Counted from the stretch's first letter, positions 3,539 through 62,988 are shown. The stretch is 64,000 bases of DNA from Thermoanaerobaculia bacterium (GCA_035627015.1 DASPMO010000054.1:32136-96135); one strand, 5' to 3'. The notes: generated by a model not told the origin, from the sequence alone. Made by a program: numbers and translations.

Positions 3539-3632
3539 GACGTAGGTCGGGCTTCAGCCCGACTGGCTCTCGCGCCATCCGGCCTTCCCTGCAGACGGGC
3601 ACGCGGAGACGGGCTGAAGCCCGTCCTACGTC
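3539..3632. repeat. Family-B REP hairpin pair (ACGTAGGTCGGGCTTCAGCCCGAC ... GACGGGCTGAAGCCCGTCCTACGT)
   Basis: Two inverted copies of the 13-bp-stem/5-nt-loop hairpin. The second copy supplies the TAG stop of plsC (minus strand). Confidence 0.7.
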
Positions 3633-4345
3633 AGCGTGCTCATCGCCGCCACCGCTTCGCGCAGCCGTTCCGCGATCGCGACCGCCCCCTCTTTGTCGCT
3701 GTTGACGCCGGCGAACTGCAGCGGTTTCCCAATAACCAGCCGTAGCTTGCGCGGGCGGGGGATCCACTTCCCTTTCGGCCACGCCCGGTACGCTCCGTCG
3801 AGATAGCAGGGGACGACAGGCGTGCTCGTCCCGGCGGTGAGGAAGCCGATGCCGGGCTTGAACTTGCCGATCGCGCCGTCCGCCGTGCGCGTCCCCTCGG
3901 GAAAGAGGATGAGGATGTGGCCCGGCGCGTCGAGGAGCTGACGGCAGAGGGCGAGGCTCTGGCGCGGGTTCTCCTTGCGGTCGAAGGGCATGGCGTTGAC
4001 GACGATCGCGGAGAAGACGAGCTTGGAGAGGTTGGTGAAGAAGTAGTCGCTCGCCGCGGCGGGGAAGGCGCGGTGGATCTTGCGCAGCGGCAGCGCGGCC
4101 AGGAGCGCCGGCGCATCGAGATGGCTGCCGTGGTTGGCGACCATGACGAACGAGCCCTCGGACGGCAGGTTCTCACGGCCGACGATCTCCAGCCGGTGCC
4201 AGGCGCGCATCAGCAAACGGATGACGAGGTTCGTCAGCGACCGCGCGGCGTACACGAAGAGATCCGGATGCCGCGGAAAGTTCTTCAGCCGCTCGATCGG
4301 CGCCTGATCGAAGTCCTCGGTCGGCTGATAGCGCCACTCGTCCAT
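3626..4345 (-). CDS. plsC: 1-acyl-sn-glycerol-3-phosphate acyltransferase
   Basis: VMVANHGSHLDAPAL (HX4D acyltransferase motif) and FPEGTRT motif. The long N-terminal extension in the ORF track overlaps cdsA and is rejected. Confidence 0.8.
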   Translation of the reverse strand: MDEWRYQPTEDFDQAPIERLKNFPRHPDLFVYAARSLTNLVIRLLMRAWHRLEIVGRENLPSEGSFVMVANHGSHLDAPALLAALPLRKIHRAFPAAASDYFFTNLSKLVFSAIVVNAMPFDRKENPRQSLALCRQLLDAPGHILILFPEGTRTADGAIGKFKPGIGFLTAGTSTPVVPCYLDGAYRAWPKGKWIPRPRKLRLVIGKPLQFAGVNSDKEGAVAIAERLREAVAAMSTLT

Positions 4346-4347
4346 CT

Positions 4348-5271
4348 TCACAGTCCGCGGAAGTAGCGCACCATGTGAAAAAAGAGCGGTGCGACGTAGA
4401 TCAGCGAGTCGACGCGATCGAGCACGCCGCCGTGTCCCTCCAGCAGCGCGCCCATGTCCTTGATGCCGATGTCCCGCTTGATCACGCTGATGGAGAGGTC
4501 GCCGAGCTGGCTGCCGACGCCGACGATCACGCCGGCCAGCAGCAGCTCGCGCGTGCCGAGCTCGGGGAACGAGAAGCGCACCAGCCAGGGGAAGGCCATC
4601 GACACCGCGAACGCGCCGAGTGCCCCCGCCCAGGTCTTGTTCGGGCTGATGTTCGGGCGGAACTTGCGGCGGCCGAAGATCCGTCCGAAGGTGAACGCGG
4701 CGATGTCGCACAGCGGCACCGCGAAGAGGAGGTAGAGGAGGTAGCCGTACGCGTTGCGCGCGTTGGCCAGGAACGCGAGGTGGCCGAACATCCAGCCCAT
4801 GTAGATGAAGCCGAGCAGCGCCAGCGCGATCGGCTGCAACTGCCCCTTCGCGCGGTCGCGCGCGATCGGGATCATCAGGATCGCCGCGACGACGTACACC
4901 GGCAGCGCCATCAGCATGCCGTACCACCCCGGCTCGCCGGTGACGGGCGTGTCGATGTACGAGACCACTCCCACCGCGGCGATGCCGAGCAGCACGATGC
5001 CGGTCATCCACCAGTCGCGATAGAGGCCGGTGGCGCGGGCGAACTCGCTGAACGCGCCGAGGGCCAGCAGGGTGAAGAAGAGGATGGTGGTGAGGCGGCC
5101 GAAGTAGAGCGCGGTGAAGACGAGCGGGATGATGATCAGCCAGCCGCGATACGCCTTCCACGCGTGGTCGACGTTCTTTTTCAGCCCGAAGCGGAGCACG
5201 GCCAGCAAGGCCCCCGCGACGACGAGCAGGCCGACGAGCACGACGAGGTAGCTGCGAAAGACCGGATTCAT
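4348..5271 (-). CDS. cdsA: Phosphatidate cytidylyltransferase (CDP-diacylglycerol synthase)
   Basis: Polytopic membrane protein of 307 aa with the C-terminal CdsA signature region (SxxKRxxGxKDxGxxxPGHGGxxDRxDS: SVIKRDIGIKDMGALLEGHGGVLDRVDS). Confidence 0.9.
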   Translation of the reverse strand: MNPVFRSYLVVLVGLLVVAGALLAVLRFGLKKNVDHAWKAYRGWLIIIPLVFTALYFGRLTTILFFTLLALGAFSEFARATGLYRDWWMTGIVLLGIAAVGVVSYIDTPVTGEPGWYGMLMALPVYVVAAILMIPIARDRAKGQLQPIALALLGFIYMGWMFGHLAFLANARNAYGYLLYLLFAVPLCDIAAFTFGRIFGRRKFRPNISPNKTWAGALGAFAVSMAFPWLVRFSFPELGTRELLLAGVIVGVGSQLGDLSISVIKRDIGIKDMGALLEGHGGVLDRVDSLIYVAPLFFHMVRYFRGL

Positions 5272-5702
5272 CCGTACACCGATGATAGGACGAGCGCGGC
5301 GAGTTGTGCGATGACGGCGATGGCTGCCTGGACGATGAGCCGCTTCGCGCCGCGGGAGCGGTCGATCCAGTCGCGAGGCGCGTCTGGACCGGCTGAAGCC
5401 CGTCCTGCGTTCAGCATCCGCATCGCGCGAGGCGCGCTCGACGTAGGGCGGGCTTCAGCCCGCCCAAGCGCGCGGTCGAGCGCATCGGTCGCAATCCGCC
5501 CCGCGGCAACGTCGTCGAACAACTTGGCGTCGAGCGAGACGCGGAAGCAGAAGTAGATCGCCGCGACACCGAGGACGATCGCCGCAATGGCCACCTGGAA
5601 CGCGGCGACGATCGTCAGCCCGACGGCGAGGCCGGAGAGGCTCGCCGCGGCGCGGAGGAGCCGCGCGGTGACGATGACGTGTGCGCGCTCTTCGTCAGTC
5701 AT
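5268..5702 (-). CDS. Small membrane protein (hypothetical) carrying an in-frame family-B REP insertion
   Basis: 144 aa. Its stop overlaps the cdsA start (ATGA). The REP-derived peptide GRAEARPTSS...GRASAGP sits in a loop. Confidence 0.5.
   Translation of the reverse strand: MTDEERAHVIVTARLLRAAASLSGLAVGLTIVAAFQVAIAAIVLGVAAIYFCFRVSLDAKLFDDVAAGRIATDALDRALGRAEARPTSSAPRAMRMLNAGRASAGPDAPRDWIDRSRGAKRLIVQAAIAVIAQLAALVLSSVYG
5386..5470. repeat. Family-B REP hairpin pair (degenerate), intragenic
   Basis: GGCTGAAGCCCGTCCTGCGT ... ACGTAGGGCGGGCTTCAGCCCGCCC inside ORF 5268-5702. The reading frame is kept. Confidence 0.6.
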
Positions 5703-9237: not shown

Positions 9238-9260
9238 CGGACGTGAGCGCGATTATGCAC

Positions 9261-10502: not shown

Positions 10503-10889
10503 TTGGGCCCTTTACGCGTGCGCTACGAGTTGCAGACCGCGTACGAGCTGGGGCGCTGGGACCGCACGGTGCTCGTCCTGCCGCCGCTGCATTCACACCT
10601 CGACGTCATCGACAGCGATTCGCTCCTGCAGATGTTCCCGCGCGTCATCTGGGCCGACACGCTGCACACGGAGTCGCTGACCGACGCGTTCGTGCTGAAG
10701 GACCTCCTCGCGCGCATTGACGCCATCGCGGCGCTGCCGGATGAGGAGCGGCGCCGCCTCATCGACCCCGTTCTGCGCGACGAGGCATTTCCCATCGACC
10801 TGGAGTCGATCGCGCAGGCGTATGAGCTCCAGACGCGCATGGAAGCGATGCAGCAGGACGGCGACGACCGGCTTCGCTACTACGGCTGA
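10503..10889 (+). CDS. Hypothetical protein; possibly the C-terminal half of a larger frameshifted ORF starting near 10252
   Basis: 128-aa ORF with coding-like composition. An upstream ORF in another frame (10252-10520, MRRADDESRLDAGERELLELL...) reads straight into it, suggesting a frameshift or sequencing error near 10500. Confidence 0.3.
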   Translation: MGPLRVRYELQTAYELGRWDRTVLVLPPLHSHLDVIDSDSLLQMFPRVIWADTLHTESLTDAFVLKDLLARIDAIAALPDEERRRLIDPVLRDEAFPIDLESIAQAYELQTRMEAMQQDGDDRLRYYG

Positions 10890-39362: not shown

Positions 39363-39416
39363 ATCCCGTAGAACGGGAACACGATCCCCCCGCCCGGAGT
39401 TAGATTGGTTCCTCAC

Positions 39417-49187: not shown

Positions 49188-49210
49188 GGCGGGCTTCAGC
49201 CCGCCCGAAG
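49182..49210. repeat. Family-B REP hairpin
   Basis: GACGTAGGGCGGGCTTCAGCCCGCCCGAAG. Confidence 0.6.
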
Positions 49211-51528: not shown

Positions 51529-52316
51529 GGCTGGCACCTGGGGCACCAGTAGGTTCCCCGCGCGTCCTTGCCCTGTTTGGCGTACTCGATCGGCGTGCCG
51601 CAGCGCCGGCAGGGTTTGCGGCCGCGGCTGTAGACGTACTGCTTCTGGCTCGGGTCGAGGCTGAAGGTGGTGATGCGGGCGGGGGAGCGTTTCTGGATGT
51701 TGGCCAGCATCACCTTCCGGGAGAGCTTGAGGATCGTGTCGAGCTGTTCGTCGGTGAGGTCGCGCACTTTCGCGAACGGGCTGACCCGCGACATGAACAG
51801 CAGCTCGCTCTTGTACTCGTTGCCGATGCCGGAGACGACGCGCTGGTTGAGGAGCACGTCGGCGATCTCTTCGTCGGGCCGGGCGCGGATGCGGCGCACG
51901 GCCTCTTCCTGGTCGAACGTCTCGCCGAGAAAGTCGGGGCCGATGTTCAGGAGGTCGTCCTGCCGCTCCAGCGAGCGGGAGTCGTGCATCTCCGCCACCG
52001 GGACGTTGAACGCCACCGCCACCCAGGCGTCGGTCTCGAGGATGATGCGCATGTCGCTGAAGCGCTTCCGCCACCGCTCGCCCGGCTTGTAGAGGTGCCA
52101 CGAGCCGTTCATGCGCATGTGCGTGCGCAGGTGGAGGTCGCCGGAGAAGTGCATGAGCAGGTTCTTTCCGGCGGCGTCGACGCGCTCGACGGTGCGGCCG
52201 GTCATCTCCACGCGCGCGAGCTGCGGGAAGACGGTCTCGAAGCGGAGGATGGTGCGTCCCGCCAGCGCCGCGTGCAGGGTGCGCGCGGCGCGGTGGATGG
52301 TATCGCCCTCAGGCAT
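51525..52316 (-). CDS. Fpg/Nei-family DNA glycosylase (formamidopyrimidine-DNA glycosylase / endonuclease VIII-like)
   Basis: N-terminal MPEGDTIH (catalytic Pro2/Glu3). C-terminal zinc finger CRRCG...CPRCQ. Its start overlaps the lhr stop by 8 bp. Confidence 0.85.
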   Translation of the reverse strand: MPEGDTIHRAARTLHAALAGRTILRFETVFPQLARVEMTGRTVERVDAAGKNLLMHFSGDLHLRTHMRMNGSWHLYKPGERWRKRFSDMRIILETDAWVAVAFNVPVAEMHDSRSLERQDDLLNIGPDFLGETFDQEEAVRRIRARPDEEIADVLLNQRVVSGIGNEYKSELLFMSRVSPFAKVRDLTDEQLDTILKLSRKVMLANIQKRSPARITTFSLDPSQKQYVYSRGRKPCRRCGTPIEYAKQGKDARGTYWCPRCQP

Positions 52317-55300
52317 GCCTGGCCCGCAACTGCATCCCCATGGCCGTGGCCACGAATCCTTCTTCCGCCAGGAACGGCGCCAGCGCCGAGCGCGACGCCG
52401 GCTCGTCGTTGACTTCGGCCACGAGCAGCGCCCGCCGCCCTCCTTCATGGACGAGCGCTGCCAGCGTCTTCGCGATCTCCCTCCCGACCATGGACCGCGT
52501 CGGCTCGTCGTCGGGGAGGAAGACGTAGAACTGCTTCTCGCCGCGCGAGACGTAGCAGGCCATGAGGCCGTTCACGAGGATGACCTCGGCGCCGACGCTG
52601 CGGGAGAGCATCCAGCTCGACTCCGGCCACTTCACGATCGCGCCGTACGGATTGGCCGGGTCGGTGGCGGCCAGCCGGACCGTCTCCGGCGCCTCCGGCT
52701 CGTCTTTCAGGGCGCGCAGGAGGTCGATCGCGCCGCCGCTGGCGAACTGCGTCGCGCCGAGGCCGGCCACGAAGTAGCCGCGGCGGATGCGTCCCGCGTC
52801 TTCCATGCCGCGGAGCACGGGATAGACGGCGGAAAAGCCGCCGAAGATGTTCTCCAGCGCCGGCGCCTCCCGCGTGACCAGGCCGTAGCGCGACAGCAAC
52901 TGCTGCGCGAGCGCCGCGGCGCGCTGCGTGTCGTTGGCGTTCCCCGACGGGACGAGCGACCAGCGTCCCTGCGTCGACGCCGGCGCCACGCGCCGCGAGC
53001 GGAAGCCGCTCGTGCGCGTCGACTTCGGCCGCGTGTAGGCGCGCAGCGCGTGGAAGGTGTCGTTCGTGACCACCCCCTTCCAGACCAGGTCCCAGAGCGC
53101 GTCCGTCAGCTCCGCCGGGAAGCCGCCGAGCGCTCCCTGCATGAGATTGAAGAAGGAGGCGCCGTGCGCGCGAAGGTAGTCCACCACCGAGTCCCCTCTC
53201 CCCTCGGGGGAGAGGGGAGGGTGAGGGGCGAGCAGCGGCAAATGATCCGTCAGATACAACGCGATCCGCCCGTCGCGCTCTCCCAGCGGCTCCACCCCCA
53301 CCCACACGATCTCCCCCGCGGCCGAAAGCGTGTCGAGGTCCGACGACTTGTAGTCGACGATGCGCGCGGCGAGGATCTCGCTCTCGAAGATCGACGCCGC
53401 CATCGGGAAGCCCTGCAGCGTCTCGATCACTTCCAAGAGGGCGTCGAGGCCGCGGCGCTTGCGGGTGACGCTCTGCCAGTTGGCGAAGAGGCGCGCCAGC
53501 ACCGGCTGGTCGACTGGCTCCGCCTCCTTGCGCAGCTTGGCCAGCGACCGGCGGCGGATGGTGCGCAGTACGTCCTGCTCGCACCACTCGCGCTGCGTGC
53601 CGTTCGGGCGGAACTCCCCCTCGATGAGGCGGCCGCGCTCGACGAACCGCTCCAGCGTCAGCGTGACCACCGCCACGCCGAGGCCGTAGCGGCGGGCCAC
53701 GTCGTTCGGCACGAACGGGCCGTGCGTGCGCGCAAAGCGGAGGACGAGATCGCCGACCGCGTCCTGCACCGGCTGCAGGTAGCGCTCGGCCACGCCGTGG
53801 GGGATGGGGGTACCGAGGGCGTCGCGGTAGCGCGAGGCGTCCTCGACGGCGATGTAGCGCTTTTCCTTCGCCACGGTGACCTCGAGGATGCGGCGCGTTT
53901 TCACGAGCTCACGTAGGACGGGCTTCAGCCCGTCTGGTCGGGCTGAAGCCCGACCTGCGTCGAGCGCACTTCGCGCTTCGATTTCTTCTTCCGAGAGGTC
54001 GCCCAGCCGGAGTAAGAGGTCGTGGATCGCATCCGCGTTCTTCGCCTTATGCCGCTCGTCGAGGTGCTGCAGCTCGAGCTCCATCTGCGCCAGCGAGTCG
54101 GGGTCGAGCAGCTCGCGCAGCTCCGGCTCGCCGAGGAGCTCGCGGAGCTGCGACTGGTCGATGGCCAGTGCCTGCGCGCGGCGCTCGGCCAGCGGCGCGT
54201 CGCCGTCGTAGAGGAAGTTGGCCACGTAGCGGAAGAGCACCGAGGCGGCGAACGGCGACGGCTTGAGCGTATCGGCGGTGTGCACGCGGATCGTGCGCTG
54301 GCGGATCTTCTTCGTCAGCTCGACGAGGGCCGGCACGTCGAAGACGTCGCGCAGCGTTTCGCGGTACGTCTCCAGGATGATCGGGAACGAGCCGAAGCGT
54401 GCCGCCACCTGCAGCAGGTCGTAGGCGCGCTTGCGCTGCTGCCAGAGCGGCGTGCGTCCCTGGATGCGGGTGCGCGGCAGGAGCAGCGCGCGGGCCGCGG
54501 CCTCGCGGAACTTCGCGGCGAACATCGAGCTGGCCCCGAGCTGGCGGAGCAGGAGCTGCTCCACTTCATCGGGATCGGGGAGGACCAGGTCGACGTTCGG
54601 CGGGTGGTCGGTCTCGGGGAAGCGCACGATGAAGCCGTCGTCGCTCCACATCGTCTCGACGTCGATGGCCATCTCGTTGCGCACCTTCGCCGTCACGGCC
54701 ATGGCCCACGGCGCGTGGATCTTGCCGCCGAACGGCGAGAGGACGCAGACGCGCCAGTCGCCCAGCTCGTCGACCACGCGCTCGACGACGATGGTGCGGT
54801 CGTCGGGGACCGCGCCCGTGGCCTCCTGCTGGTCCATCAGATATTGAAGGAAGTTCTCCGCGGCCCGCTCGTCGAGATCGTGTCTCTTCACCAGCCGCTG
54901 GATCGCGGCGGCGCGCGGCGTCTCGCGGATCTCGCGCACGAGCTTCCCGATGGCCTCGCCGAAGGGGACCGTGCGCTCCGCGGAGTCGGCCTTCCAGAAC
55001 GGCATCTTCCCCGGCTGCCCCGGCGCGGGGGTGACGATGACCTTATCGTGGGTGATCTCCTCGATGCGCCACGTCGAGGCGCCGAGGACGAACGTCTCCC
55101 CGGGAGAGGTCTCGAAGACCATCTCTTCATCGAGCTCGCCGACGCGCGCGGACTGGTTCTTCTCCGTGCCGGCCAGGAAGACGCCGTACAGCCCGCGGTC
55201 GGGGATCGTGCCGCCGCTGGTGATGGCGATGCGCTTCGCCCCCTGCCGCGCGGTGAGCGTGTTGGCCACGCGGTCCCAGGTGATGCGCGGGCGGAGCTCC

Positions 55301-56793
55301 GCGAATTCGTCGGAGGGATAGAGGCCGGAGAGCATGTCCAGCACGCCGTCGAACGACGTGCGCGTCAGCTCGGCGAACGGCGCGGCGGTGCGCACGAGGT
55401 TGTAGAGATCGTCGACCGACCAGGCGTCCATGGCCACCATGGCCACGATGTGCTGGGCCAGGACGTCGAGCGGGTTGCGCGGATAGCGCGTCGGCTCGAT
55501 GGCGCCGGTGTGCATGGCCTCGGCCACGGCGGCGCAGGCCACCAGGTCGCCGCGGAACTTCGGGAAGATGATCCCGCTCGACTCCGCGCCCACCTGATGG
55601 CTGGCCCGTCCGATGCGCTGCATCCCGGAGGCGATGGACGGCGGCGCCTCGATCTGGATCACCAGGTCGATGGCGCCCATGTCGATGCCCAGCTCCAGCG
55701 ACGACGTGGCCACCAGCGCCGGGAGGCGTCCCGACTTCAGCGCGTCCTCGATCTCGGTGCGGTGGGCCCGGGCGATGGAGCCGTGATGCGCGTGCACGAG
55801 CGTCTCGCCGGCGAGCTCGTTCAGCGCGCCGGCCAGCCGCTCCGCCAGGCGGCGCGAGTTCACGAAGATGAGCGTCGACGTGTGCGCTTTGATCAGCTCG
55901 AGGAGGCGCGGGTGGATGGCCGGCCAGATCGACGTCCCCTTCGGTCCGGCGGAAGCGGGACCGCTCGTGATCTCCAGCGTCTCGCCGAGGCGGGCCATGT
56001 CTTCCACCGGCACTTCGACCTTCAGCGTCAGCTTTTTCTTCTCGCCGGTGTCGATGATGGACGTAGGGCGGGCTTCAGCCCGCCCCTCCCCGGGGGGACG
56101 GGCTGAAGCCCGTCCTACGTCGTACCCCCCCAGGAACCGCGCCACCTCTTCCAGCGGCCGCTGCGTGGCCGAGAGACCGATCCGCTGCGGCGGCTTCTCG
56201 CAGCGCGCGGTCAGGCGCTCGATCGAGAGGGCCATGTGCGCGCCGCGCTTGTTCGGCACCAGGGCGTGGATCTCGTCGATGACGATCGTCTCCACCCCCT
56301 GCAGTACCTCGCGCGCGTTGGAGGTCATCATCAGATACAGCGACTCGGGGGTGGTGATGAGGATGTCGGCCGGCTCGCGGGCGAAGCGGGCCCGCTCGGA
56401 CTGCGGCGTGTCGCCGGTGCGGATGGCGATCTCGGGGATGACGTACTCGTCGCCGCGCTGGGCGGCCACGTTGGAGATGCCGATCAGCGGCGCGCGGAGG
56501 TTGCGCTCCACGTCCACGGCCAGTGCCTTGAGCGGCGAGACGTACAGCACGCGGCAGCGGCGCTCCTTGGGCGGGCGCGGCGTGAACATCAGCCGGTCGA
56601 GCGCCCAGAGGAACGCGGTGAGCGTTTTTCCACTCCCTGTAGGGGCGAAGATCAGCGTGTGCTCGCCGCGGGAAATGGCCGGCCAGCCGAGTTGCTGCGC
56701 GCGCGTCGGGGAGGGGAACGAAGCCGTAAACCATTCCCGTACGGCGGGATGGAACGGCTCGAGACCTGTCGTCGAACTTTTTTTACGAAGCAT
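52309..56793 (-). CDS. lhr: Lhr-family ATP-dependent DNA helicase (about 1495 aa) carrying two in-frame family-B REP insertions
   Basis: APTGSGKT (motif I), VIDEIH (DExH), LSATQ, the large C-terminal Lhr extension. The REP peptides GRASARPPGEGRAEARPTS and GRASARPDGLKPVL lie in inter-motif loops. Confidence 0.9.
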   Translation of the reverse strand: MLRKKSSTTGLEPFHPAVREWFTASFPSPTRAQQLGWPAISRGEHTLIFAPTGSGKTLTAFLWALDRLMFTPRPPKERRCRVLYVSPLKALAVDVERNLRAPLIGISNVAAQRGDEYVIPEIAIRTGDTPQSERARFAREPADILITTPESLYLMMTSNAREVLQGVETIVIDEIHALVPNKRGAHMALSIERLTARCEKPPQRIGLSATQRPLEEVARFLGGYDVGRASARPPGEGRAEARPTSIIDTGEKKKLTLKVEVPVEDMARLGETLEITSGPASAGPKGTSIWPAIHPRLLELIKAHTSTLIFVNSRRLAERLAGALNELAGETLVHAHHGSIARAHRTEIEDALKSGRLPALVATSSLELGIDMGAIDLVIQIEAPPSIASGMQRIGRASHQVGAESSGIIFPKFRGDLVACAAVAEAMHTGAIEPTRYPRNPLDVLAQHIVAMVAMDAWSVDDLYNLVRTAAPFAELTRTSFDGVLDMLSGLYPSDEFAELRPRITWDRVANTLTARQGAKRIAITSGGTIPDRGLYGVFLAGTEKNQSARVGELDEEMVFETSPGETFVLGASTWRIEEITHDKVIVTPAPGQPGKMPFWKADSAERTVPFGEAIGKLVREIRETPRAAAIQRLVKRHDLDERAAENFLQYLMDQQEATGAVPDDRTIVVERVVDELGDWRVCVLSPFGGKIHAPWAMAVTAKVRNEMAIDVETMWSDDGFIVRFPETDHPPNVDLVLPDPDEVEQLLLRQLGASSMFAAKFREAAARALLLPRTRIQGRTPLWQQRKRAYDLLQVAARFGSFPIILETYRETLRDVFDVPALVELTKKIRQRTIRVHTADTLKPSPFAASVLFRYVANFLYDGDAPLAERRAQALAIDQSQLRELLGEPELRELLDPDSLAQMELELQHLDERHKAKNADAIHDLLLRLGDLSEEEIEARSALDAGRASARPDGLKPVLRELVKTRRILEVTVAKEKRYIAVEDASRYRDALGTPIPHGVAERYLQPVQDAVGDLVLRFARTHGPFVPNDVARRYGLGVAVVTLTLERFVERGRLIEGEFRPNGTQREWCEQDVLRTIRRRSLAKLRKEAEPVDQPVLARLFANWQSVTRKRRGLDALLEVIETLQGFPMAASIFESEILAARIVDYKSSDLDTLSAAGEIVWVGVEPLGERDGRIALYLTDHLPLLAPHPPLSPEGRGDSVVDYLRAHGASFFNLMQGALGGFPAELTDALWDLVWKGVVTNDTFHALRAYTRPKSTRTSGFRSRRVAPASTQGRWSLVPSGNANDTQRAAALAQQLLSRYGLVTREAPALENIFGGFSAVYPVLRGMEDAGRIRRGYFVAGLGATQFASGGAIDLLRALKDEPEAPETVRLAATDPANPYGAIVKWPESSWMLSRSVGAEVILVNGLMACYVSRGEKQFYVFLPDDEPTRSMVGREIAKTLAALVHEGGRRALLVAEVNDEPASRSALAPFLAEEGFVATAMGMQLRARHA
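53910..53962. repeat. Family-B REP hairpin pair inside lhr
   Basis: CACGTAGGACGGGCTTCAGCCCGTCTGGTCGGGCTGAAGCCCGACCTGCGT. Confidence 0.7.
56060..56120. repeat. Family-B REP hairpin pair inside lhr
   Basis: GACGTAGGGCGGGCTTCAGCCCGCCCCTCCCCGGGGGGACGGGCTGAAGCCCGTCCTACGT. Confidence 0.7.
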
Positions 56794-56882
56794 GTGAGCG
56801 CCGTCACGCCGCTGGACTTTCCGGCGCGACGACTGCAAGAATAGTGAACAGCCCCCAGCGCAAGAGAGTGAAGGAATGGGAG

Positions 56883-57647
56883 ATGCGGCTCAAGGTACTC
56901 GGCGCGTACGGCGCGTCCGATGCTGAACATAATCTGACCGGGTACCTGATCGACGACTGGTTCGCGGTGGATGCCGGCACTCTCACGTCGAAGCTGTCAT
57001 TTGCGCAACAGTCACGCGTGCAAGCCGTTTTCATCACGCATCCGCACGCCGACCACATCCGCGACCTGCCGCACCTGATCCACAACCGCTTCTCGCAGCC
57101 GACCCAGCCATTGACGATCTTTGCCGCCAAGGACGTGCTCGAGCTGCTGGTGCGCGACGTCTTCAACGGCATCGTCTGGCCGGACTTTTCCGAGATCGTC
57201 TCGCCGATCAACAACAAGCCCGCCGTGCAGTACCGCGCCCTGAACCCGGGGAAGCGCATCGTCTTCAACGACGTCGGCATCACCGCGGTGCCGGTCGATC
57301 ACCAGATCCCCGCGTCGGGTGTGCTCCTGGAGATCAACGGCCAGTCGATCGTCTTCACCGGCGACACCGGCCCGACCCAGGAGATCTGGAAGCGGACGAA
57401 CAAGATGCAGAACGTGGTGGCGGTGGTGACGGAGGCGTCGTTCCCGAACGACCAGCAGTCGCTGGCCGACGAGACCGCCCACCTCTCGCCGAATACCTTC
57501 GGCGAGGAGCTGAAGAAGATCACCGTCGACGCCCCCGTCTACGCCAGCCACCGCAAGATCCCGTTCGAGCGCGACATCGAGTCGCAGATCCGGAATCTGC
57601 GGGACCGGCGGGCGCGGGTGCTGCTCGAGAAGAACTACACGCTGTAG
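56883..57647 (+). CDS. MBL-fold metallo-hydrolase, class-II 3',5'-cyclic-nucleotide phosphodiesterase-like
   Basis: MRLKVLGAYGAS...AVDAGT...FITHPHADH (HxHxDH)...VFTGDTG. Confidence 0.65.
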   Translation: MRLKVLGAYGASDAEHNLTGYLIDDWFAVDAGTLTSKLSFAQQSRVQAVFITHPHADHIRDLPHLIHNRFSQPTQPLTIFAAKDVLELLVRDVFNGIVWPDFSEIVSPINNKPAVQYRALNPGKRIVFNDVGITAVPVDHQIPASGVLLEINGQSIVFTGDTGPTQEIWKRTNKMQNVVAVVTEASFPNDQQSLADETAHLSPNTFGEELKKITVDAPVYASHRKIPFERDIESQIRNLRDRRARVLLEKNYTL

Positions 57648-57780
57648 GCTCATAGGTACATAGGCTCACAGGCTCACAGGAGAGCCCTATGAGCCTATGA
57701 GCCTGTGCGCCTATGAGCCTATGAGCCTATGAACCTATGAGCCTATGAGCCTATGAGCCTATGCGCCTGTGCGCCTCAGT
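57645..57780. repeat. Octamer inverted array C: (CTCAyAGG)x4 ... (CCTATGAG)x~10
   Basis: Same 8-bp unit as arrays A and B. Sits between convergent gene ends. Confidence 0.7.
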
Positions 57781-59740
57781 TCACCCCCAGCTCCCGATAG
57801 ATCGCCTTCGGATCGAACACCTTCCCATCCTTCACCACCCGCACGACCCGCCGGATCTCCGAGATGTTCCTCGTCGGATCCCCATCCACGATGATGAAGT
57901 CCGCGAGCTTCCCCGGCTCGATCGTCCCGAGGTCCGCCTCGCGCTCGAGCACCTGCGCGGGGACGAGCGTGGCGATGCGCAGCACCTCGGCCGGCGGGAT
58001 GCCGGCGCGGACGTAGTTCTCCAGCTCGCGGTGCAGGGCGAAGCCGGCCAGGCCGTCCGTCCCCGCCACGATGGTCACGCCGCTGCGATGCAGCTCCGCG
58101 ACGAGATCGAGCATGCGCTGGTACGACGCGCGGTAGCGCTCGTCCATCCCCTCCGGCACGGGAAGCCCCCCCGCCAGGAACCAGCGCCGCACCTGCGGCG
58201 GCACGCGCTCCGCGATCATCGCGTACGACGGCTCGAGCTCTCCCTTGCGCGCGGTGAACATCCCCTCGAAGACCGTCATCGTCGGATCGACGACGATCTT
58301 TCGGCTCCGCAGTTTCTCGATGAACGCCCGCACTTCGGGCGACTGCAGGTCGAGGTCCGCGCCGCGCTTGGCCGGCTCGGTGAAGCGCGCCGGCGTGCGC
58401 GTGTCCGTCACGTCCGGCATGAAGTTGAGGAAGAGCATATTGACGTGCTGGATCTCGTCGTAGCCGGCGTCGACCGCTTTCTCCGCGGTCATCCCCGCGG
58501 GGATGTGGCCGCTCACGCGCAGCCCTTTCTCGTGCGCGTAGCGCGTCAGGAACGGCACGAGCTCCGGCTTGATGGAGCTGTAGATCTTCAGCCCCTCGTA
58601 CTTGCGCGAGACGAGGAAGTCGATGGCCTTGCGCCCCTCCTCTTCCGTCGCCACGAGGAGGTTCGTCGGTCCCTGGAACGGCCCCGGCCCGTCGATCAGG
58701 CCGGCCAGCACGAGCCGCGGTCCGATGGCCTCGCCGGAGTCGTATTTGTCGCGCAGCGCGGTGACCGTGTCGCTGTCGTTGCCGAGGTCGCGGGCGGAGG
58801 TGATGCCGGCCGCGATGTTCAGCAGGCCGTCGGTGTCGCCGAGATGCCCGTGCATGTCCCAGAGGCCGGGGAGGAGCACGCCCCCCTTGGCGTCGATCAT
58901 CTCTCCGGCGCTGTACGGGCTGTCGCTGCCGACGCTGGCAATGCGGTTGCCCTGGGTGACGACGGTGGTCGGCTCGGAGAGCCTGCCCGTGCGCGGATCG
59001 AACACGCGCGCGTTCACGACGATGACCCGCACCGGGTTGCCGGTCAGCCGCTTCGCGATCTCCGCGGCGCGCGACCGCCCGCGTTCATCCTGCGCGTCGA
59101 TGAGCTGTTTCACGTCGCCCTCGAAGCCTTCGCGGATGGTCGAGCTCCACGACGAGACGAGGCCGAAGAAGTTGCGGTCGTCGTCGAGCCAGACCTCGTA
59201 CGGCGTGAAGCCGATGCCGGAGATCTCGTACGCGGTGACGTGCGTGCCGCGCAGCGTGGCCTCGCCGACCTTGCGGATCGACGCCTCGCCGCCGCCCTGC
59301 AGCGGCAGCTTGCCGCCCGCCATCAGCAGCGCGCGCGAGAGAATGCCCCACTCCTCGGGCGGCCCATACATGCTGGTGTACAGCGCGCCCGCCTTCCCTT
59401 CGCCCGTTTCCGCGGTGCTCTTCCAGGTCACGCGGTCGCCGGTGGTGGTGAGGCGCTCCTCGACCGGCGTCTTGAGGTAGTCGTTGCCGGTCGTGACCAC
59501 GGACACCGGCAGGCCGCGCGCGTCGGTGCGCACGACGGTGTGGGTCTTCGGCCCGCGCCCGCGGTCGTTGAACTCGTAGTCGACGATCGTCTCGTCGCCG
59601 CTCGTCGTCACGACCTGCGTGCCGGCCTTGTTGGTGCTCATCAGCACCGTGTAGCGGCGCGTCTCCTCGCGCGCGGGCTGGTGCGCGCACGCTGCAACGA
59701 GCAGGATTGCCAGCAGACTATTTCTTTTCGACATCCGCAT
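57776..59740 (-). CDS. Amidohydrolase-family metal-dependent hydrolase, lipoprotein/secreted
   Basis: Lipobox LLVAAC. LPGLWDMHGHL (HxH)...SGHIP...GTDG. Confidence 0.8.
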   Translation of the reverse strand: MRMSKRNSLLAILLVAACAHQPAREETRRYTVLMSTNKAGTQVVTTSGDETIVDYEFNDRGRGPKTHTVVRTDARGLPVSVVTTGNDYLKTPVEERLTTTGDRVTWKSTAETGEGKAGALYTSMYGPPEEWGILSRALLMAGGKLPLQGGGEASIRKVGEATLRGTHVTAYEISGIGFTPYEVWLDDDRNFFGLVSSWSSTIREGFEGDVKQLIDAQDERGRSRAAEIAKRLTGNPVRVIVVNARVFDPRTGRLSEPTTVVTQGNRIASVGSDSPYSAGEMIDAKGGVLLPGLWDMHGHLGDTDGLLNIAAGITSARDLGNDSDTVTALRDKYDSGEAIGPRLVLAGLIDGPGPFQGPTNLLVATEEEGRKAIDFLVSRKYEGLKIYSSIKPELVPFLTRYAHEKGLRVSGHIPAGMTAEKAVDAGYDEIQHVNMLFLNFMPDVTDTRTPARFTEPAKRGADLDLQSPEVRAFIEKLRSRKIVVDPTMTVFEGMFTARKGELEPSYAMIAERVPPQVRRWFLAGGLPVPEGMDERYRASYQRMLDLVAELHRSGVTIVAGTDGLAGFALHRELENYVRAGIPPAEVLRIATLVPAQVLEREADLGTIEPGKLADFIIVDGDPTRNISEIRRVVRVVKDGKVFDPKAIYRELGVN

Positions 59741-62060
59741 CCTCCCAATAGAACGACCTGTATCTGCCGCGCCGCACGCGGCCGGCGTGATCTTCGATCT
59801 CGACGTAGAGGCTCGTATCGTACGGAATGCGCGGCGGCTTGTCCGGGATGGTCAGCTCGAAGCCCGGTTTGTCATTGAGGTAGCGCTGCCACGGATACGA
59901 CGCCTGCACGTCGGGACGTGGCACGCGCTCCATCTCGAACCGGTACCGGCCGCTGTGCAGGACGACCGTGGCCCGGCGGATGCCGTGCGGCGACATGGCC
60001 CATCCCTTCACGGTGAGCGAGCCTTTGGCCAGGTAGAACCACCCCGGCTCCTCGGTGACGATCATGATGGCGTCGCTGTGCGTCGGCTGCAGCGTCAGGA
60101 AACGCTGCAGGGTCTGCGACGGGAGATGTCCGGCCCCGTTCGGCACCTCGGCCATCCGGTAGCGCTGCCACTGCGGCAGGTTCCGGGTGATGGCGAAGAC
60201 GTAGTCGCCGACGATCTCGTTGTCGAAGCGCTGCAGGAACTGCAGGCGCCCCGTGGCCAGGTTGCGCTTCAGGAAGTCGACGAGCTTCAGGTAGCGCTCC
60301 CCCTGGAGCGAGTCGCCGTGCACGATCATGAGGCGCGCGCCGTAGCCTTCGAGCAGGCCGAGCATTTCGTCGTATGCGTCGCGCACCTCGGCGTCGCGCA
60401 GCTTCCAGAATTCGGGCGGGAAGAAGCCCGACGTGCCGTTGACGAGCATCACCCGGTGGGTCGCGGAGTGGAGCACGTAGCGGTAGTCGACGCCGTCGCC
60501 GCTGAACGGCATCTCCACGACCGGGCCGACGCGCGTCTTGTTCAGCCACGCGTAGACGGGAGGCGTCTCGGGAGGCACGTGCTCCCAGCGCAGCCGCGGC
60601 ACGACTTCCCACGTCATGAAGGCGAGGATGGCCACCGCGATCGCATGCTTCTTCCATCCCTTGCGGTCCCGCAGCAGCGCCGAGGCGCCGAGCGCGCCCC
60701 ACACGGCCAGCCCGACGTACGCCACGATGGCGAACCGCGCCGCCACGCGCATGGCCTGGAACGGCTCGAAACGCCGATAAAAGAAGATGTAGAGGAAGTT
60801 GTTCGCCCCGAGCGACCCGAAGATCCCGATGGCGATCCACACCGCCGCCGCCCACGCGCCCGGATTGAACCGCGACCGCGCCGCCGCGTCGCGCAGCGCC
60901 GGCGCGAAGCGCAGCACCGCCGCCCCCAGCGCCATCATCAGCGGAATGTCGGAGCTGTCCGCCGAGAAAATCCTCACCCCGAACACGGTCAACGCATACC
61001 GCTCGCTGACCGCCCCCGCCCACCCGATCGCCAGCCCGATGAAAATCAATGCATCCAGTGCCAAACGTAGGGCGGGCTTCAGCCCGCCTCCCTCGTGGCC
61101 GGGGGTCGGGCTGAAGCCCGACCTGCGTTGCGTCGCCACGATCCCGATCAACGCCAGAAACACGATCCCCAGCCCCGGAAACAACTGCTTCTCCGCCGCA
61201 TACATCTCCCCCCGCGGCACCCGCCCATACGCGCGGTTGATCGACGTCGGCACCAGCCAGTTCCGCCACGACGCCGACCCGTCGCGCACCTGATCGAAGC
61301 TGCGCACGTACTGGTAGTGTTTCGACACCACGCGATACGGCTGCAGGAAGGGATAGAGCAGGATCCCCGCGGCGAGGACGCTCGCGGCGAGCCCGAGGTA
61401 AAACTTCCACGGCCGCGGCGCGATCACCGCCAGCGCCACCACGGTGAACAGCACCGCCACGCCGCAGAACAGCAGGAAGTAGATGTTCGTCAGCCCGTTG
61501 GCGACGATGGCCAGCGCCAGCAGCGCCCCCCGCTTCCAGTTGGCGCGCTCCCAGAACGCCAGCAGCGCCGCCAGCAGCAGCGGAGGCCACGGGCTGAACA
61601 CGATCTGCAGGTGCGGCAGGTGGTCGAACTTGAACGAGCAGAAGGCGAAGAAGATCCCGCCCGCCAGCGCCCCGACGGTGCTCCCCGACACCCTCCGCGC
61701 CAGCACCCACGCGCCGTAGCCCGACAGCGCGAAGCCGAGGATGAAGGCAATGTTGTAGACCTGGATGGCGCTCAGTCCCGCGAGGAAGAACGGCATCACC
61801 ACGACGGCGACGGCGAAGAGGTTCTCGCTGTACGCGAACGGCAGGATGCCGGGGTGAAAGATCGGCGCGTCGTACAGGCGCAGCGGCTGGTGGGTGAGGG
61901 CGTAGCAGGCCCAGTCGAGGATGAACGCGTTCAGCAGCGGGTCGCCGAAATCCGACACGGCGCTGTCGAGATGCGCCGCCAGCGGCCACGTCAATGCGAC
62001 GGCCAGGACGATGAAGAACAGCAGCGCGGCAAGCTCGCGGACGATCGGTTTGTGGCGCAA
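59718..62060 (-). CDS. Large polytopic membrane protein, putative GT-C-type glycosyltransferase-like (ArnT/PMT/YfhO-like topology) with an in-frame family-B REP
   Basis: 780 aa. N-terminal AVSDFGDPLLNAFILDW loop followed by >12 TM helices and a C-terminal soluble domain. The REP peptide RRSGFSPTPGHEGGGLKPALRLA sits inside. Confidence 0.55.
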   Translation of the reverse strand: MRHKPIVRELAALLFFIVLAVALTWPLAAHLDSAVSDFGDPLLNAFILDWACYALTHQPLRLYDAPIFHPGILPFAYSENLFAVAVVVMPFFLAGLSAIQVYNIAFILGFALSGYGAWVLARRVSGSTVGALAGGIFFAFCSFKFDHLPHLQIVFSPWPPLLLAALLAFWERANWKRGALLALAIVANGLTNIYFLLFCGVAVLFTVVALAVIAPRPWKFYLGLAASVLAAGILLYPFLQPYRVVSKHYQYVRSFDQVRDGSASWRNWLVPTSINRAYGRVPRGEMYAAEKQLFPGLGIVFLALIGIVATQRRSGFSPTPGHEGGGLKPALRLALDALIFIGLAIGWAGAVSERYALTVFGVRIFSADSSDIPLMMALGAAVLRFAPALRDAAARSRFNPGAWAAAVWIAIGIFGSLGANNFLYIFFYRRFEPFQAMRVAARFAIVAYVGLAVWGALGASALLRDRKGWKKHAIAVAILAFMTWEVVPRLRWEHVPPETPPVYAWLNKTRVGPVVEMPFSGDGVDYRYVLHSATHRVMLVNGTSGFFPPEFWKLRDAEVRDAYDEMLGLLEGYGARLMIVHGDSLQGERYLKLVDFLKRNLATGRLQFLQRFDNEIVGDYVFAITRNLPQWQRYRMAEVPNGAGHLPSQTLQRFLTLQPTHSDAIMIVTEEPGWFYLAKGSLTVKGWAMSPHGIRRATVVLHSGRYRFEMERVPRPDVQASYPWQRYLNDKPGFELTIPDKPPRIPYDTSLYVEIEDHAGRVRRGRYRSFYWEDADVEKK
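61065..61130. repeat. Family-B REP hairpin pair, intragenic and in-frame
   Basis: CAAACGTAGGGCGGGCTTCAGCCCGCCTCCCTCGTGGCCGGGGGTCGGGCTGAAGCCCGACCTGCGTT. Confidence 0.7.
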
Positions 62061-62087
62061 GACGTGGGGATTCTAGAATGCCCGGCC

Positions 62088-62927
62088 ATGTCCCGCCCGC
62101 CGGTCTCTGTGATCATTCACACGCTCAACGAGATCGAGCAGATCGAGGAGTGCCTCCGCACCGTCGAGTGGGCGGACGAGATCTACCTCGTCGATTCCCT
62201 CTCCACCGACGGCACCGTGCCCCGCGTGCGCGAGCGGTTCCCGAAGGCGCGCATCGAAGAGCGCCCGTACCTCGGCGCCGCGGCCACGAAGAACTACGCC
62301 ATCGACCGCGCCGCCAACGACTGGATCTTCGTCATCGACGCCGACGAGCGCGTCACGCCGCAGCTCCGCGACGAGATCCTGCGCACGCTGGAGGGGCCGC
62401 TCGACCGCTGGGCCTACTCCGTCGGCCGCCGCAATTTCATGCTCGGGAAGGAAGTGCGCTTCAGCGGCCTGCAGCGCGACCGCGTCACGCGTCTCTTCCA
62501 CCGCGGCCACGCGCGCTATCCCAACAAGCGCGTGCACGCGGACCTCATCGTCGACGGCGCGACCGCCGACCTGCGCCACAAGATGCTGCACTACTACATC
62601 CGCAGCTTCGACCACATGATCGGCAAGATGACGCGCTACGCGAACTGGGGCGCCGCGCAGATGTTCATCGACGGCAAGACCACCGGCGTGTGGGGCATCT
62701 TCAGCCATCCCTTCGGCAAGTTCGTCCGCGACTACATCCTCAACCTTGGCTTCCTCGACGGCGCGCGCGGCCTGATCTCCGTCGGCATGCACGTCTACTA
62801 CACGTTCTGGAAGTACGCGAAGCTGTGGGAGCTCCAGCAGCTCAAGCGCCTCGGCAAGCCGGTGCCGTTGCCGGAGCTGGACAAAGAGGAAGAGCGGTGG
62901 GAGCTGCCGTGGCTGAAGAAAACGTAG
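62088..62927 (+). CDS. Family-2 glycosyltransferase
   Basis: VSVIIHTLNE...YLVDSLSTDGT...VIDADE (DxD) GT2 signature. The stop TAG is supplied by the REP (ACGTAGG). Confidence 0.8.
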   Translation: MSRPPVSVIIHTLNEIEQIEECLRTVEWADEIYLVDSLSTDGTVPRVRERFPKARIEERPYLGAAATKNYAIDRAANDWIFVIDADERVTPQLRDEILRTLEGPLDRWAYSVGRRNFMLGKEVRFSGLQRDRVTRLFHRGHARYPNKRVHADLIVDGATADLRHKMLHYYIRSFDHMIGKMTRYANWGAAQMFIDGKTTGVWGIFSHPFGKFVRDYILNLGFLDGARGLISVGMHVYYTFWKYAKLWELQQLKRLGKPVPLPELDKEEERWELPWLKKT

Positions 62928-62988
62928 GTCGGGCTTCAGCCCGACCAGCCGGCTTCAGCCCAGCCGGGCTGAAGCCCGGCCTACGTTT
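62922..62988. repeat. Family-B REP hairpin pair shared by convergent genes (supplies both stop codons)
   Basis: AACGTAGGTCGGGCTTCAGCCCGACCAGCCGGCTTCAGCCCAGCCGGGCTGAAGCCCGGCCTACGTTT. TAG at 62925-62927 (+ gene) and CTA at 62981-62983 (- gene). Confidence 0.7.

Follow-up and report, generated by a model that had tools for sequence, protein, structure and literature searches.

GTAG-tagged REP hairpins inside and at the ends of genes in a Thermoanaerobaculia genome segment

A 64-kb stretch of DNA from an uncultured Thermoanaerobaculia bacterium (64,000 nt, analysed whole and called the window below) contains 18 units of a short hairpin repeat at 10 loci, against 0.01 expected by chance, and six of these loci lie in frame within genes. 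Very probably the repeats are GTAG-tagged REPs, most of them in inverted dimers (REPINs), of a family close or identical to GTAG-5, and the intragenic copies are tolerated survivors. How would such a distribution arise? A RAYT would copy or move the hairpins as single-stranded DNA, copies would land more or less anywhere, and selection would clear those that break genes. The intragenic copies that survive would be those that keep the frame, read in one of four stop-free frames and sit in length-tolerant loops or linkers, and the encoded peptides would be passengers without function of their own. This kind of element is not new, since GTAG-type REPs and REPINs have been described before in other bacteria. 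REP hairpins translated within working proteins are a documented, little-known phenomenon, extended here to uncultured Thermoanaerobaculia, with clean DNA-level presence/absence pairs in a DNA-repair helicase.

Units were identified with the pattern GTAGGNCGGGCTTCAGCCCGNCC, allowing up to three mismatches. This search found the repeat in every coordinate block listed by an earlier reading of the DNA alone (the sequence-only reading). The 23-nt consensus, (A/G)ACGTAGG-N-CGGGC-TTCA-GCCCG-N'-CC, folds into an 8-bp stem (GGNCGGGC/GCCCGN'CC) with a 4-nt TTCA loop and an unpaired GTAG tail. The tail is GTAG in 15 of the 18 window units and GCAG in three, with GTA unpaired in the predicted folds, and most units have a lineage-specific RAC prefix before it. 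As that reading recognized, inverted pairs are frequent: they make up eight of the 10 loci, seven tail-out and one tail-in (5386/5443), with spacers of 0-42 nt, and the remaining two loci are singletons (37969 and 49184). Its single hairpin with a 13-bp stem, AACGTAGG-N-CGGGC-5nt-GCCCG-N-CCTACGTT, gave no match even at three mismatches; the long stem is apparent because two inverted units pair with each other, and a single unit lacks it. Its half-site at 33887 shares only 13 nt with the repeat, has six mismatches to the full unit and was left out of the count. For single-unit hairpins the predicted folding energies are -9.9 and -11.4 kcal/mol (z -4.9 and -3.9; no shuffle folded equally well), and for tail-out dimers they range from -27 to -36 kcal/mol (z from -6.7 to -9.6). 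Both variable stem positions covary, and subfamilies differ by complementary stem changes. Positions 6/21 are Watson-Crick paired in all 18 window units and in 95 of 102 units at other Thermoanaerobaculia loci, with all four pairs in use across these loci, while positions 8/19 are G-C in 49 units, A-T in 46 and G-T in four.

Among the matches listed, many fall on contigs of several Thermoanaerobaculia MAGs, and the 23-nt core is found in several phyla, including in Ectothiorhodospiraceae and Halofilum, which we take to be gammaproteobacterial relatives of Thioalkalivibrio. A literature search for the exact core sequence returned no paper containing it. When the 64-kb window was searched with Rfam covariance models, only a tRNA exceeded the gathering threshold and the repeat had no match.

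What might move the repeat? In a Thermoanaerobaculia MAG (L050), ORF 263-706 scores 89.4 bits against the NCBIfam model NF047646, 'REP-associated tyrosine transposase' (cut-off 80 bits), also passes Pfam Y1_Tnp, and carries the HUH motif PEHVHAI and the tyrosine motif EYVRQNPV, with only about 22% identity to E. coli RayT. This RAYT gene is flanked on both sides by tail-out dimers of the repeat (143-212 and 703-774). An HUH-motif regex and tblastn/phmmer searches with the E. coli and L050 proteins covered the window and ~170 kb from syntenic relatives and found no RAYT, so a single locus, in a different genome of the class, is what ties the repeat to a transposase. RAYT relatives in JGI metagenomes (80 loci, 28-66% identity) yielded no second cognate RAYT, none being flanked by this repeat; the 14 loci checked for other hairpins were mostly flanked by GTAG hairpins of their own. 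To gauge how closely the L050 genome is related to the window, its RND-transporter-like protein was compared with the window, and no match was found. That RAYTs mobilise REPs is itself still only inferred, according to the abstract of PMC8266576.

Could the dimers instead be MITEs, deletion derivatives of a conventional IS with terminal inverted repeats and a DDE transposase? Tail-out dimers do resemble a short variable core bounded by terminal inverted repeats of 23 nt. However, lone units exist, the two in the window being joined by many in other Thermoanaerobaculia among the matches listed, one pair is tail-in, and the spacers range down to 0 nt and up to 42 nt. Moreover, no target-site duplication is evident at filled and empty sites, and the sole transposase found beside the repeat is a RAYT, making a MITE origin extremely unlikely. 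The ACGT flanking the repeats was considered as a target-site duplication and rejected, because it is part of each unit and singletons have it on one side only.

REPIN/RAYT systems are said to have been treated by Bertels and Rainey in 2011. The repeats described here share with them, as portrayed in the consulted parts of Nunvar 2010 (PMC2817692) and of work on the E. coli TnpA-REP (PMC3479197, PMC8266576), inverted REP doublets, long hairpins, the GTAG tag and a single-copy gene for an IS200-like tyrosine transposase with the same REPs on both sides (here in L050). They differ in that the RAYT comes from another genome of the class and in that REPINs are usually described as extragenic. The sequence-only reading had compared the intragenic copies with Rickettsia palindromic elements (RPEs), reportedly introduced by Ogata et al. 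in Science in 2000. The behaviour is indeed RPE-like: the insertions keep the frame, are specific to a lineage and lie in loops or linkers of proteins that are otherwise intact. RPEs likewise are palindromes placed in frame within many unrelated genes that seem functional, where they add short peptides at permissive surface positions. RPE-1 elements are longer palindromic insertions of 100-150 bp in an obligate intracellular alphaproteobacterium, whereas the present repeat is 23 nt long and GTAG-tagged, and its description suggests no sequence relationship to RPE-1 to RPE-8, which are long palindromes or CGTC-tagged units.

In-frame REPs are better documented than the sequence-only reading allowed in calling them rarely reported outside Rickettsia. 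Di Nocera 2013 (BMC Genomics 14:522, PMC3733652), in the sections used here, catalogues in-frame intragenic GTAG and CGTC REPs from several phyla, many in DNA-repair genes; it lists RPE-4 and RPE-6 as CGTC-tagged REPs and reports CGTC families without a dedicated transposase. An excerpt of its supplement shows GTAG-5 dimers encoding VGRASAR...SRAEARP in UvrA of Thioalkalivibrio sp. HL-EbGR7. These peptides, equal to those of Lhr site 1 below, back-translate to GTAGGNCGGGCTTCAGCCCGN and its complement and are the same as peptides found in the window. From the peptides and the Ectothiorhodospiraceae and Halofilum matches, we infer a probable identity with GTAG-5. GTAG-type REPs are imperfect, G+C-rich palindromes of 20-40 bp, a description that the present 8-bp stem and 4-nt loop fit. 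In those sections, the GTAG tail also lies outside a 6-9-bp G+C-rich stem, subfamilies arise by complementary stem changes, and head-to-head and tail-to-tail dimers have variable spacers. GTAG REPs there lie no more than about 20 bp from ORF 3' ends, with occasional in-frame intragenic copies. What differs is the host, here Thermoanaerobaculia (Acidobacteriota), the host genes and the RAC prefix before GTAG. For Acidobacteria, the same sections mention Koribacter, whose tyrosine-transposase genes have long inverted repeats at their flanks instead of REPs. The extragenic location of GTAG-type REPs is not matched by the window, with six of 10 loci intragenic, and yet remains compatible with such a REP because PMC3733652, in the part seen, documents exceptions of this kind. 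The window is also not typical, since only four of 36 loci are intragenic in an unselected sample (a conservative test).

The intragenic loci comprise 11 units and one partial, two loci in lhr and one each in YfhO-like gene A, YfhO-like gene B, a GT-C-fold gene and the gene for a ~130-aa membrane protein. As the sequence-only reading had stated, all copies in the ORFs it named keep the reading frame, and the suspicion that the hosts might be pseudogenes finds no footing, each ORF being full-length with all domains present. Ortholog comparison found the segments missing from orthologs at five loci and, for YfhO-B, missing from paralogs only. Judging from these alignments, the segments at the five loci were inserted in particular lineages, in variable loops or linkers.

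Two of the loci are in lhr (52309-56838, minus strand). At site 1, a tail-out dimer at 56060-56121 (units 56063/56096) encodes VGRASARPPGEGRAEARPT in the linker that follows the first RecA-like (DEAD) domain, with a net gain of 51 nt. This site is filled in the window, L003 and L004 and lacks the repeat in three of six close genomes, L001 and L005 being empty and L002 carrying a different palindromic insert. At site 2, a tail-out dimer at 53910-53961 (units 53913/53936) encodes GRASARPDGLKPVLR within the second winged-helix domain, with a net gain of 30 nt; four of the six genomes are filled (the window, L002, L003 and L005) and two are empty (L001 and L004). Presence of both inserts thus varies across relatives 90-95% identical. 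The solved M. smegmatis Lhr (7LHL) has a 17-residue gap exactly facing the site 1 segment and is nine residues shorter at site 2. The dimers at sites 1 and 2 measure 56 and 46 nt, neither a multiple of three, and the frame is kept because 2 and 16 adjoining target nucleotides, respectively, are missing. Plain cut-and-paste insertion does not fully describe these events.

Among the membrane proteins, the ~130-aa protein is encoded by a conserved gene at 5268-5702 (minus strand) with the tail-in pair in frame at 5386-5465 (units 5386-5408, minus, and 5443-5465, plus). The insert encodes GRAEARPT...GRASAGP, about 23 aa, and in an alignment of the family of 48 homologs the closest one (80% identical) lacks the segment. 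Low GC3 over the last 39 codons raised the possibility that this ORF reads through into non-coding DNA, which was rejected because the 48 homologs keep the C-terminal R.W.DRCRGA.RL motif and helix. YfhO-like gene A (34160-36535, minus strand) contains in frame, in a loop between transmembrane helices, a tail-out dimer at 35221-35284 (units 35239-35261, plus, and 35262-35284, minus, with an 18-nt partial duplication at 35221-35238), which encodes VGRASARPDGLKPVLRLAPVLR. Many orthologs with identities as low as about 75% carry the repeat, in some cases as a single or decayed copy; among those listed, orthologs at 73% identity or less have a short REP-free loop, and one at 69% has an isolated GFSP-type trace. 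The GT-C-fold/DUF6311 membrane protein gene (59718-62060, minus strand) carries a tail-out dimer in frame at 61064-61129 (units 61067/61104), again in a loop between transmembrane helices, encoding RSGFSPT...GGLKPALR. All four syntenic relatives covering this site are filled, and the segment is missing from more distant orthologs, in which the loop is hypervariable. Over 60 nt adjoining the repeats, the YfhO-A and GT-C genes are 77% identical. A longer mobile unit was considered for this stretch and set aside, the identity being judged to reflect transmembrane codons (IGLAIG) and the repeat itself. Lastly, YfhO-like gene B (36629-38737, minus strand) has a single plus-strand unit in frame at 37966-37991 (unit start 37969; dG -9.9, z -4.9) that encodes GLKPDLR. 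Each of the three orthologs examined (L006-L008) has the unit at this site, where paralogs and distant homologs have another loop of equal length; its status as a putative insertion rests on these paralogs and distant homologs only.

That the YfhO-B and GT-C sites are filled in every close relative examined might suggest ancestral protein sequence, or else an artefact of metagenome assembly. However, the segments are missing from more distant orthologs and the solved homolog, and their DNA agrees with the consensus of the repeat at as many as 23 of 23 positions. The same filled alleles also recur in independent NCBI, ENA and JGI assemblies, JGI has a record of a protein 100% identical to the window GT-C protein, and we regard both explanations as almost certainly wrong.

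Is the added peptide itself what is selected, or what spreads? The peptide signatures in the sequence-only reading are correct and are a mechanical outcome of four stop-free frames, VGRASARP, R[STPA]GFSP[STPA], GRAEARPT and [GADV]GLKP[GADV]LR. All four are used among the 11 intragenic units, with counts of 4, 1, 2 and 4. A peptide-coding module would account for the recurrence of the GRASARP and GLKP signatures across unrelated proteins and for the several copies that relatives as little as about 80% identical keep at the orthologous site. Against this, one DNA sequence yields four unrelated peptides, close relatives do without the segments, four of the 10 window loci and most of the unselected sample lie outside genes, and the covariation keeps base-pairing, not codons. 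AF2 models show the segments as low-confidence coil between confident helices: pLDDT is 63-69 at residues 81-110 of the ~130-aa protein versus 93-96 in its flanks, and 67-71 in the coil at residues 310-328 of the GT-C protein versus a model mean of 92.8. We therefore consider a peptide module very unlikely, and the earlier proposal of a functional, selfish peptide-coding repeat does not hold; four frames in use, four peptides and modelled coil fit survivors of tolerated insertion. For annotation, the repeats explain length variation and low-complexity GRASARP, GLKP.LR, GFSP and RAEARPT stretches in many predicted proteins.

A more substantial, though still unlikely, alternative is that the repeats spread or are refreshed mainly by recombination, through gene conversion or microhomology-mediated template switching between REP copies and a REP-like target, with a minor part for RAYT. 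At the GT-C site, the stem is CGGGC/GCCCG in the window and the doubly changed CAGGC/GCCTG in L002 and L003, a subfamily common elsewhere in the L003 genome (SMAG_U1735) and present at other L002 loci, and unit 1 has T/A in the window and A/T in L001/L005. The 'empty' lhr site 2 alleles resemble the 3' end of the repeat (16 of 21 nt match a REP with an internal deletion), conserve the PVLR residues and differ from filled alleles by 30 nt rather than by the 46-nt dimer. The YfhO-B singleton and a decayed singleton at lhr site 2 of L188 leave loop length unchanged. On the other side, the class has a cognate RAYT flanked by this repeat, and both empty Lhr alleles read GAC/GT at the insertion point, which, with the RAC before most units, is in keeping with a sequence-specific step of insertion. 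Selection on the hairpin could also account for paired stem changes, and the evidence for recombination comes from a handful of sites. Filled and empty alleles, together with subfamily switching at orthologous sites, provide material on how REPs move, a question unsettled even in E. coli.

The same loops of Lhr, YfhO, GT-C and the small membrane protein hold at least four unrelated palindromic families across lineages, subfamilies are exchanged at orthologous sites through paired stem changes, and 'empty' Lhr alleles retain REP-like codons (PVLR). It is conceivable, if rather doubtful, that such permissive loops are fixed landing pads, repeatedly hit, refreshed and partly erased, and not sites of one-off accidents. 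REP turnover, by RAYT or gene conversion, would then be a steady source of permanent new loop sequence.

The four loci outside genes all abut gene ends, a point absent from the sequence-only reading. At 3539-3632, a tail-out dimer (units 3542-3564, plus, and 3607-3629, minus; 42-nt spacer; dG -35.5, z -7.5) lies between genes for a HlyD-family protein (2223-3488, minus) and a PlsC-like acyltransferase (3626-4351, minus), and the TAG of its minus-strand unit is the acyltransferase stop codon (...STLT-stop). The tail-out dimer at 47492-47545 (units 47495/47520; dG -29.9, z -9.6) is directly 3' of a VWA-domain gene (46120-47493, plus), whose stop codon, TGA, shares bases with the GAC prefix of unit 1, and the next gene begins at 47579; this dimer is present in L002, and L001 has another insert in its place. 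A single plus-strand unit at 49181-49206 (unit start 49184) supplies, at 49185-49187, the stop codon of the gene at 48747-49187 (plus; ...KKLT-stop). Finally, the tail-out dimer at 62921-62987 (units 62924/62962; dG -32.3, z -9.5) lies between convergent genes for a GT2 glycosyltransferase (62088-62927, plus) and NfeD (62981-63931, minus), and each of its GTAG tails is the TAG stop of one of them (...LKKT-stop and ...KAET-stop). Gene-end copies may in addition serve as mRNA 3' stem-loops. The other two frames, with TAG or TGA, are seen at gene ends only, where the repeat supplies the stop. In the window, four genes terminate at the TAG of a repeat (four of 18 units), and in the unselected Thermoanaerobaculia sample the TAG serves as a stop codon for 11 of 69 units, which explains why many genes here end in ...T-stop.

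The window has a G+C content of 66-70%, and its gene calls rest on third-position G+C (GC3, 0.82-0.95). Within it, GTAGGNCGGGCTTCAGCCCGNCC with up to three mismatches is matched 18 times against 0.01 expected, and each of the ten coordinate blocks listed by the sequence-only reading holds such matches. The single long hairpin drawn in that reading, AACGTAGG-N-CGGGC-5nt-GCCCG-N-CCTACGTT, has no match in the window even at three mismatches, and its half-site at 33887 has 13 nt in common with the repeat and is not counted as a unit. The observation on the repeat is real and well supported; the hairpin model is in need of correction. What, then, is the repeat unit? It has three parts: a GTAG tail, the three-base prefix in front of it, which reads AAC or GAC in 16 of the 18 units, and an 8-bp stem, GGNCGGGC/GCCCGN'CC, with a TTCA loop. 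The stem covaries: its variable position is complementary to the partner in all 18 units, as T-A, A-T, G-C or C-G. Isolated units have predicted folds of -9.9 and -11.4 kcal/mol (z -4.9 and -3.9). Inverted pairs with spacers of 0 to 42 nt occupy eight loci, seven with the tails pointing outward (tail-out) and one with the tails pointing inward (tail-in, 5386/5443), and singletons lie at two, 37969 and 49184. Tail-out dimers are predicted to fold as extended, imperfectly paired hairpins, at -27 to -36 kcal/mol with z-scores from -6.7 to -9.6. An Rfam scan of the window returned no family covering the repeat; its sole match was a tRNA gene at 25692-25762 on the minus strand.

Where do the repeats lie relative to genes? 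Six loci fall within open reading frames, and all four non-intragenic loci abut gene ends. The PlsC-like gene (3626-4351), the gene at 48747-49187, the GT2 gene (62088-62927) and NfeD (62981-63931) each end on the TAG of a repeat's GTAG; the dimer at 62924-62984, between the convergent GT2 and NfeD genes, supplies the stops of both. At the VWA gene, the TGA stop shares bases with the prefix of the unit at 47495. In an unselected Thermoanaerobaculia sample, 11 of 69 units terminate a high-GC3 ORF (80 codons or longer), and the last codon before the stop nearly always encodes Thr. Two of the six reading frames of the unit contain stops, TAG on one strand and TGA (in the loop) on the other, and these closed frames are found at gene ends only. 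The four open frames encode VGRASARP, R-x-GFSP-x, GRAEARPT and x-GLKP-x-LR; all four are in use among the 11 intragenic units, 4, 1, 2 and 4 times. In the syntenic relative L001, a different palindromic element of ~140 nt, GTCATCCTGAGC...GCTCAGGATGAC, with ACGTAGG on one side and CTACGT on the other, replaces the dimer orthologous to 62924-62984 (about 3580-3720).

Two of the intragenic loci lie in lhr (52309-56838, minus strand), whose product has all Lhr domains in Pfam and can be aligned, from residue 26 to residue 1478, with the solved Lhr of Mycobacterium smegmatis (7LHL). Site 1 (56063-56118) is in the linker after the DEAD domain, and site 2 (53913-53958) is within the second winged-helix domain. 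Among genomes whose Lhr proteins are 90-95% identical to that of the window, both sites are polymorphic in their DNA: the window, L003 and L004 carry the repeat at site 1, where L001 and L005 are empty, and the window, L002, L003 and L005 carry it at site 2, where L001 and L004 are empty (L001-L005 being syntenic relatives). Site 1 of L002 has a different palindromic insert. A 17-residue gap in 7LHL exactly faces the site 1 peptide, and 7LHL is shorter by 9 residues at site 2. Among the best 120 Lhr homologs listed, which come from Thermoanaerobaculia or other Acidobacteriota where the source is named (one record is labelled Deltaproteobacteria), the repeat peptides are limited to the closest.

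YfhO-like gene A (34160-36535) carries a dimer and a partial duplicate of 18 nt; the loop that contains them joins transmembrane helices. At this site, its orthologs of 91% to about 75% identity have either a dimer, one unit or a degraded remnant, and those listed at 73% or below have a short repeat-free loop (AWPSERKRAF), except for one at 69% with an isolated GFSP-type trace. YfhO-like gene B (36629-38737) carries a single unit, which the three orthologs examined all share at that site; in paralogs and distant homologs the loop is of equal length and unrelated sequence. The gene for a 780-aa protein (59718-62060) holds a tail-out dimer in a hypervariable loop. This protein has no Pfam match in the scan of window proteins, DUF6311 (PF19830) is recorded for its orthologs, and a 100% identical protein is recorded on a 46-kb JGI contig. 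Its structure is predicted with confidence to be that of a membrane glycosyltransferase of the GT-C fold (mean pLDDT 92.8), with GT-C enzymes such as the C-mannosyltransferase DPY19 and PglB as best structural matches. The dimer is kept in all four syntenic relatives covering the site, and the loop of distant orthologs is shorter and REP-free; repeat-encoded residues 310-328 are modelled as coil (pLDDT 67-71) flanked by helices 297-309 and 329-351. The 60 nt adjoining the repeats in YfhO-like gene A (35171-35230) and in the GT-C gene (61017-61076) are 77% identical, probably because both stretches include repeat sequence and resemble each other in their transmembrane codons (IGLAIG).

The small ORF at 5268-5702 contains the tail-in pair, an insert of about 23 residues. 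With a GC3 of just 0.51 across its last 39 codons it was considered as a doubtful gene; this was ruled out by 48 homologs, proteins of about 117-150 aa, with conserved parts flanking the insert. The insert is missing from the closest homolog, which is 80% identical, and the model drops to pLDDT 63-69 at residues 81-110, from 93-96 on either side. The proposal that copies lie in frame within well-supported ORFs is thus borne out, with six in-frame loci and intact host genes. That the segments are lineage-specific loop or linker additions holds at five of the six; for YfhO-like gene B the backing comes solely from the paralog comparison.

Do the encoded peptides matter to their hosts? The earlier proposal likened the repeat to Rickettsia palindromic elements (RPEs) and allowed for a selfish peptide-coding repeat. 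The likeness stands for behaviour. The repeat is not itself an RPE, those elements being long palindromes or, in PMC3733652, CGTC-tagged units. A function at the peptide level is unlikely, given that the repeat encodes four different peptides, that these are modelled as low-confidence coil and that close relatives do without them.

Several features fit simple insertion poorly. At Lhr sites 1 and 2, the dimers measure 56 and 46 nt against net gains of 51 and 30 nt, and 2 and 16 target nucleotides, respectively, are missing just 3' of the insert; the left side of site 1 has an additional, unrelated codon difference. The empty alleles of site 2 read GAC GTG GAG CCG GTG CTC CGC, which by our own count agrees at 16 of 21 positions with a repeat that lacks 30 internal nt, and PVLR is kept throughout this 'empty' clade. 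L188, a further relative (85% identity), has a decayed single unit at site 2 with total length unchanged. At the GT-C site, the stems are CGGGC/GCCCG in the window and CAGGC/GCCTG in L002 and L003, the latter being the prevalent subfamily of the L003 genome (SMAG_U1735), also seen at other L002 loci; unit 1 also switches from T/A to A/T between orthologs. At the few sites sampled, the length mismatches, REP-like empty alleles and subfamily switch suggest gene conversion or repeated hits at identical places, besides simple insertion. In protein alignments of other lineages, the loops of Lhr, YfhO-like protein A, the GT-C protein and the small protein hold segments resembling translations of other repeat families (e.g. 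GEGQGEGAAPHPYPLP, GGSASAFSSARESESGGAASALH, DAGD[AP]STALGMT and GQRATGNGQ), and repeats appear to land in these loops recurrently.

How widespread is the repeat, and what could move it? Its 23-nt core occurs in at least 97 stretches of species-representative genomes; we estimate from base composition that chance alone would give no more than a handful of exact matches in the collection. Several Thermoanaerobaculia MAGs, with many contigs matched, are among the sources listed, together with other Acidobacteriota, Gamma-, Alpha- and Betaproteobacteria (e.g. Oceanicola granulosus, Halofilum and Ectothiorhodospiraceae), Verrucomicrobia (Opitutus among them), Planctomycetes and Chloroflexi. Specific to Thermoanaerobaculia is the RAC prefix, which 77 of 102 units carry in that class. 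No REP-associated tyrosine transposase (RAYT) is encoded in the window or its syntenic relatives. A cognate-looking RAYT is present in the same bacterial class, at locus L050 of the Thermoanaerobaculia MAG SMAG_U4539: this 147-aa ORF matches NCBIfam NF047646, 'REP-associated tyrosine transposase', at 89.4 bits (cut-off 80 bits), also passes Pfam Y1_Tnp and has the motifs PEHVHAI and EYVRQNPV. Tail-out dimers of the window repeat lie on either side of the gene, and its stop codon is the TAG of the repeat. Metagenome homologs 28-66% identical to it are without the window repeat; most of the 14 metagenome RAYTs checked are flanked by GTAG-tagged hairpins of their own, which is the known one-transposase, one-REP pattern. 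The RAYT would copy or move the hairpins as single strands, and insertions may land widely, with selection retaining those that leave genes functional.

Two further RAYT genes were seen. That of Neptunicoccus sediminis (L072, 2872-3055) adjoins the 23-nt core, as does that of L050, and both are candidate cognates; the former is of the E. coli-like type (Alphaproteobacteria), and the two share about 22-24% identity. The other, in a Rhodobacterales MAG (L098, CAZYBG010000004.1, 3860-4520), is about 50% identical to E. coli RayT, holds an in-frame dimer of the window repeat (RPGFSP...AGLKPGLR) and is further disrupted by a frame-shifting insert.

Di Nocera et al. (2013; PMC3733652) divide REPs into GTAG- and CGTC-tagged super-families and describe 6-9 bp stems, subfamilies that differ by complementary substitutions in the stem, dimers arranged head-to-head or tail-to-tail, and elements adjoining the 3' ends of ORFs. 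In their supplementary table, GTAG-5 dimers in Thioalkalivibrio UvrA encode VGRASARHAAASTGTASRAEARP. Because two peptide signatures there are identical to those of Lhr site 1, the window repeat would, as judged from these peptides, be a GTAG-5 member or a very close relative. The UvrA case is therefore a direct precedent for an in-frame repeat in a repair gene, and the earlier remark that such behaviour is rarely reported elsewhere was overstated. The exact core sequence occurs in no searchable paper, and our literature search returned no report of the repeat in Acidobacteriota. What is new is the lineage and the set of host genes; the kind of element is already known.

Is the window typical? 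A conservative GC3-based test, which detects four of its six verified intragenic loci, scores 4 of 36 loci as intragenic in the unselected Thermoanaerobaculia sample, where the actual proportion is probably 10-20%. Intragenic loci are therefore enriched in the window, most likely because it was chosen for them. The window also contains intergenic inverted arrays of 8-nt tandem repeats, (CTCATAGG)n followed by (CCTATGAG)n, at 38713-38851, 39286-39376 and 57645-57792. At Lhr site 1 of L002 (about 10700-10790), a comparable palindromic array of 8-mers, (GAGTCGTC)n...(GACGACTC)n, lies in frame and encodes SSSRRVVEEKEEREDSTTRRLEES; the arrays look like another type of palindromic repeat, distinct from the first and likewise translatable. 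A tandem array with a 21-nt unit of about GGGAAACACGCGTGTATCCGC occupies 42294-42505, just past the stop (42290) of a long ORF.
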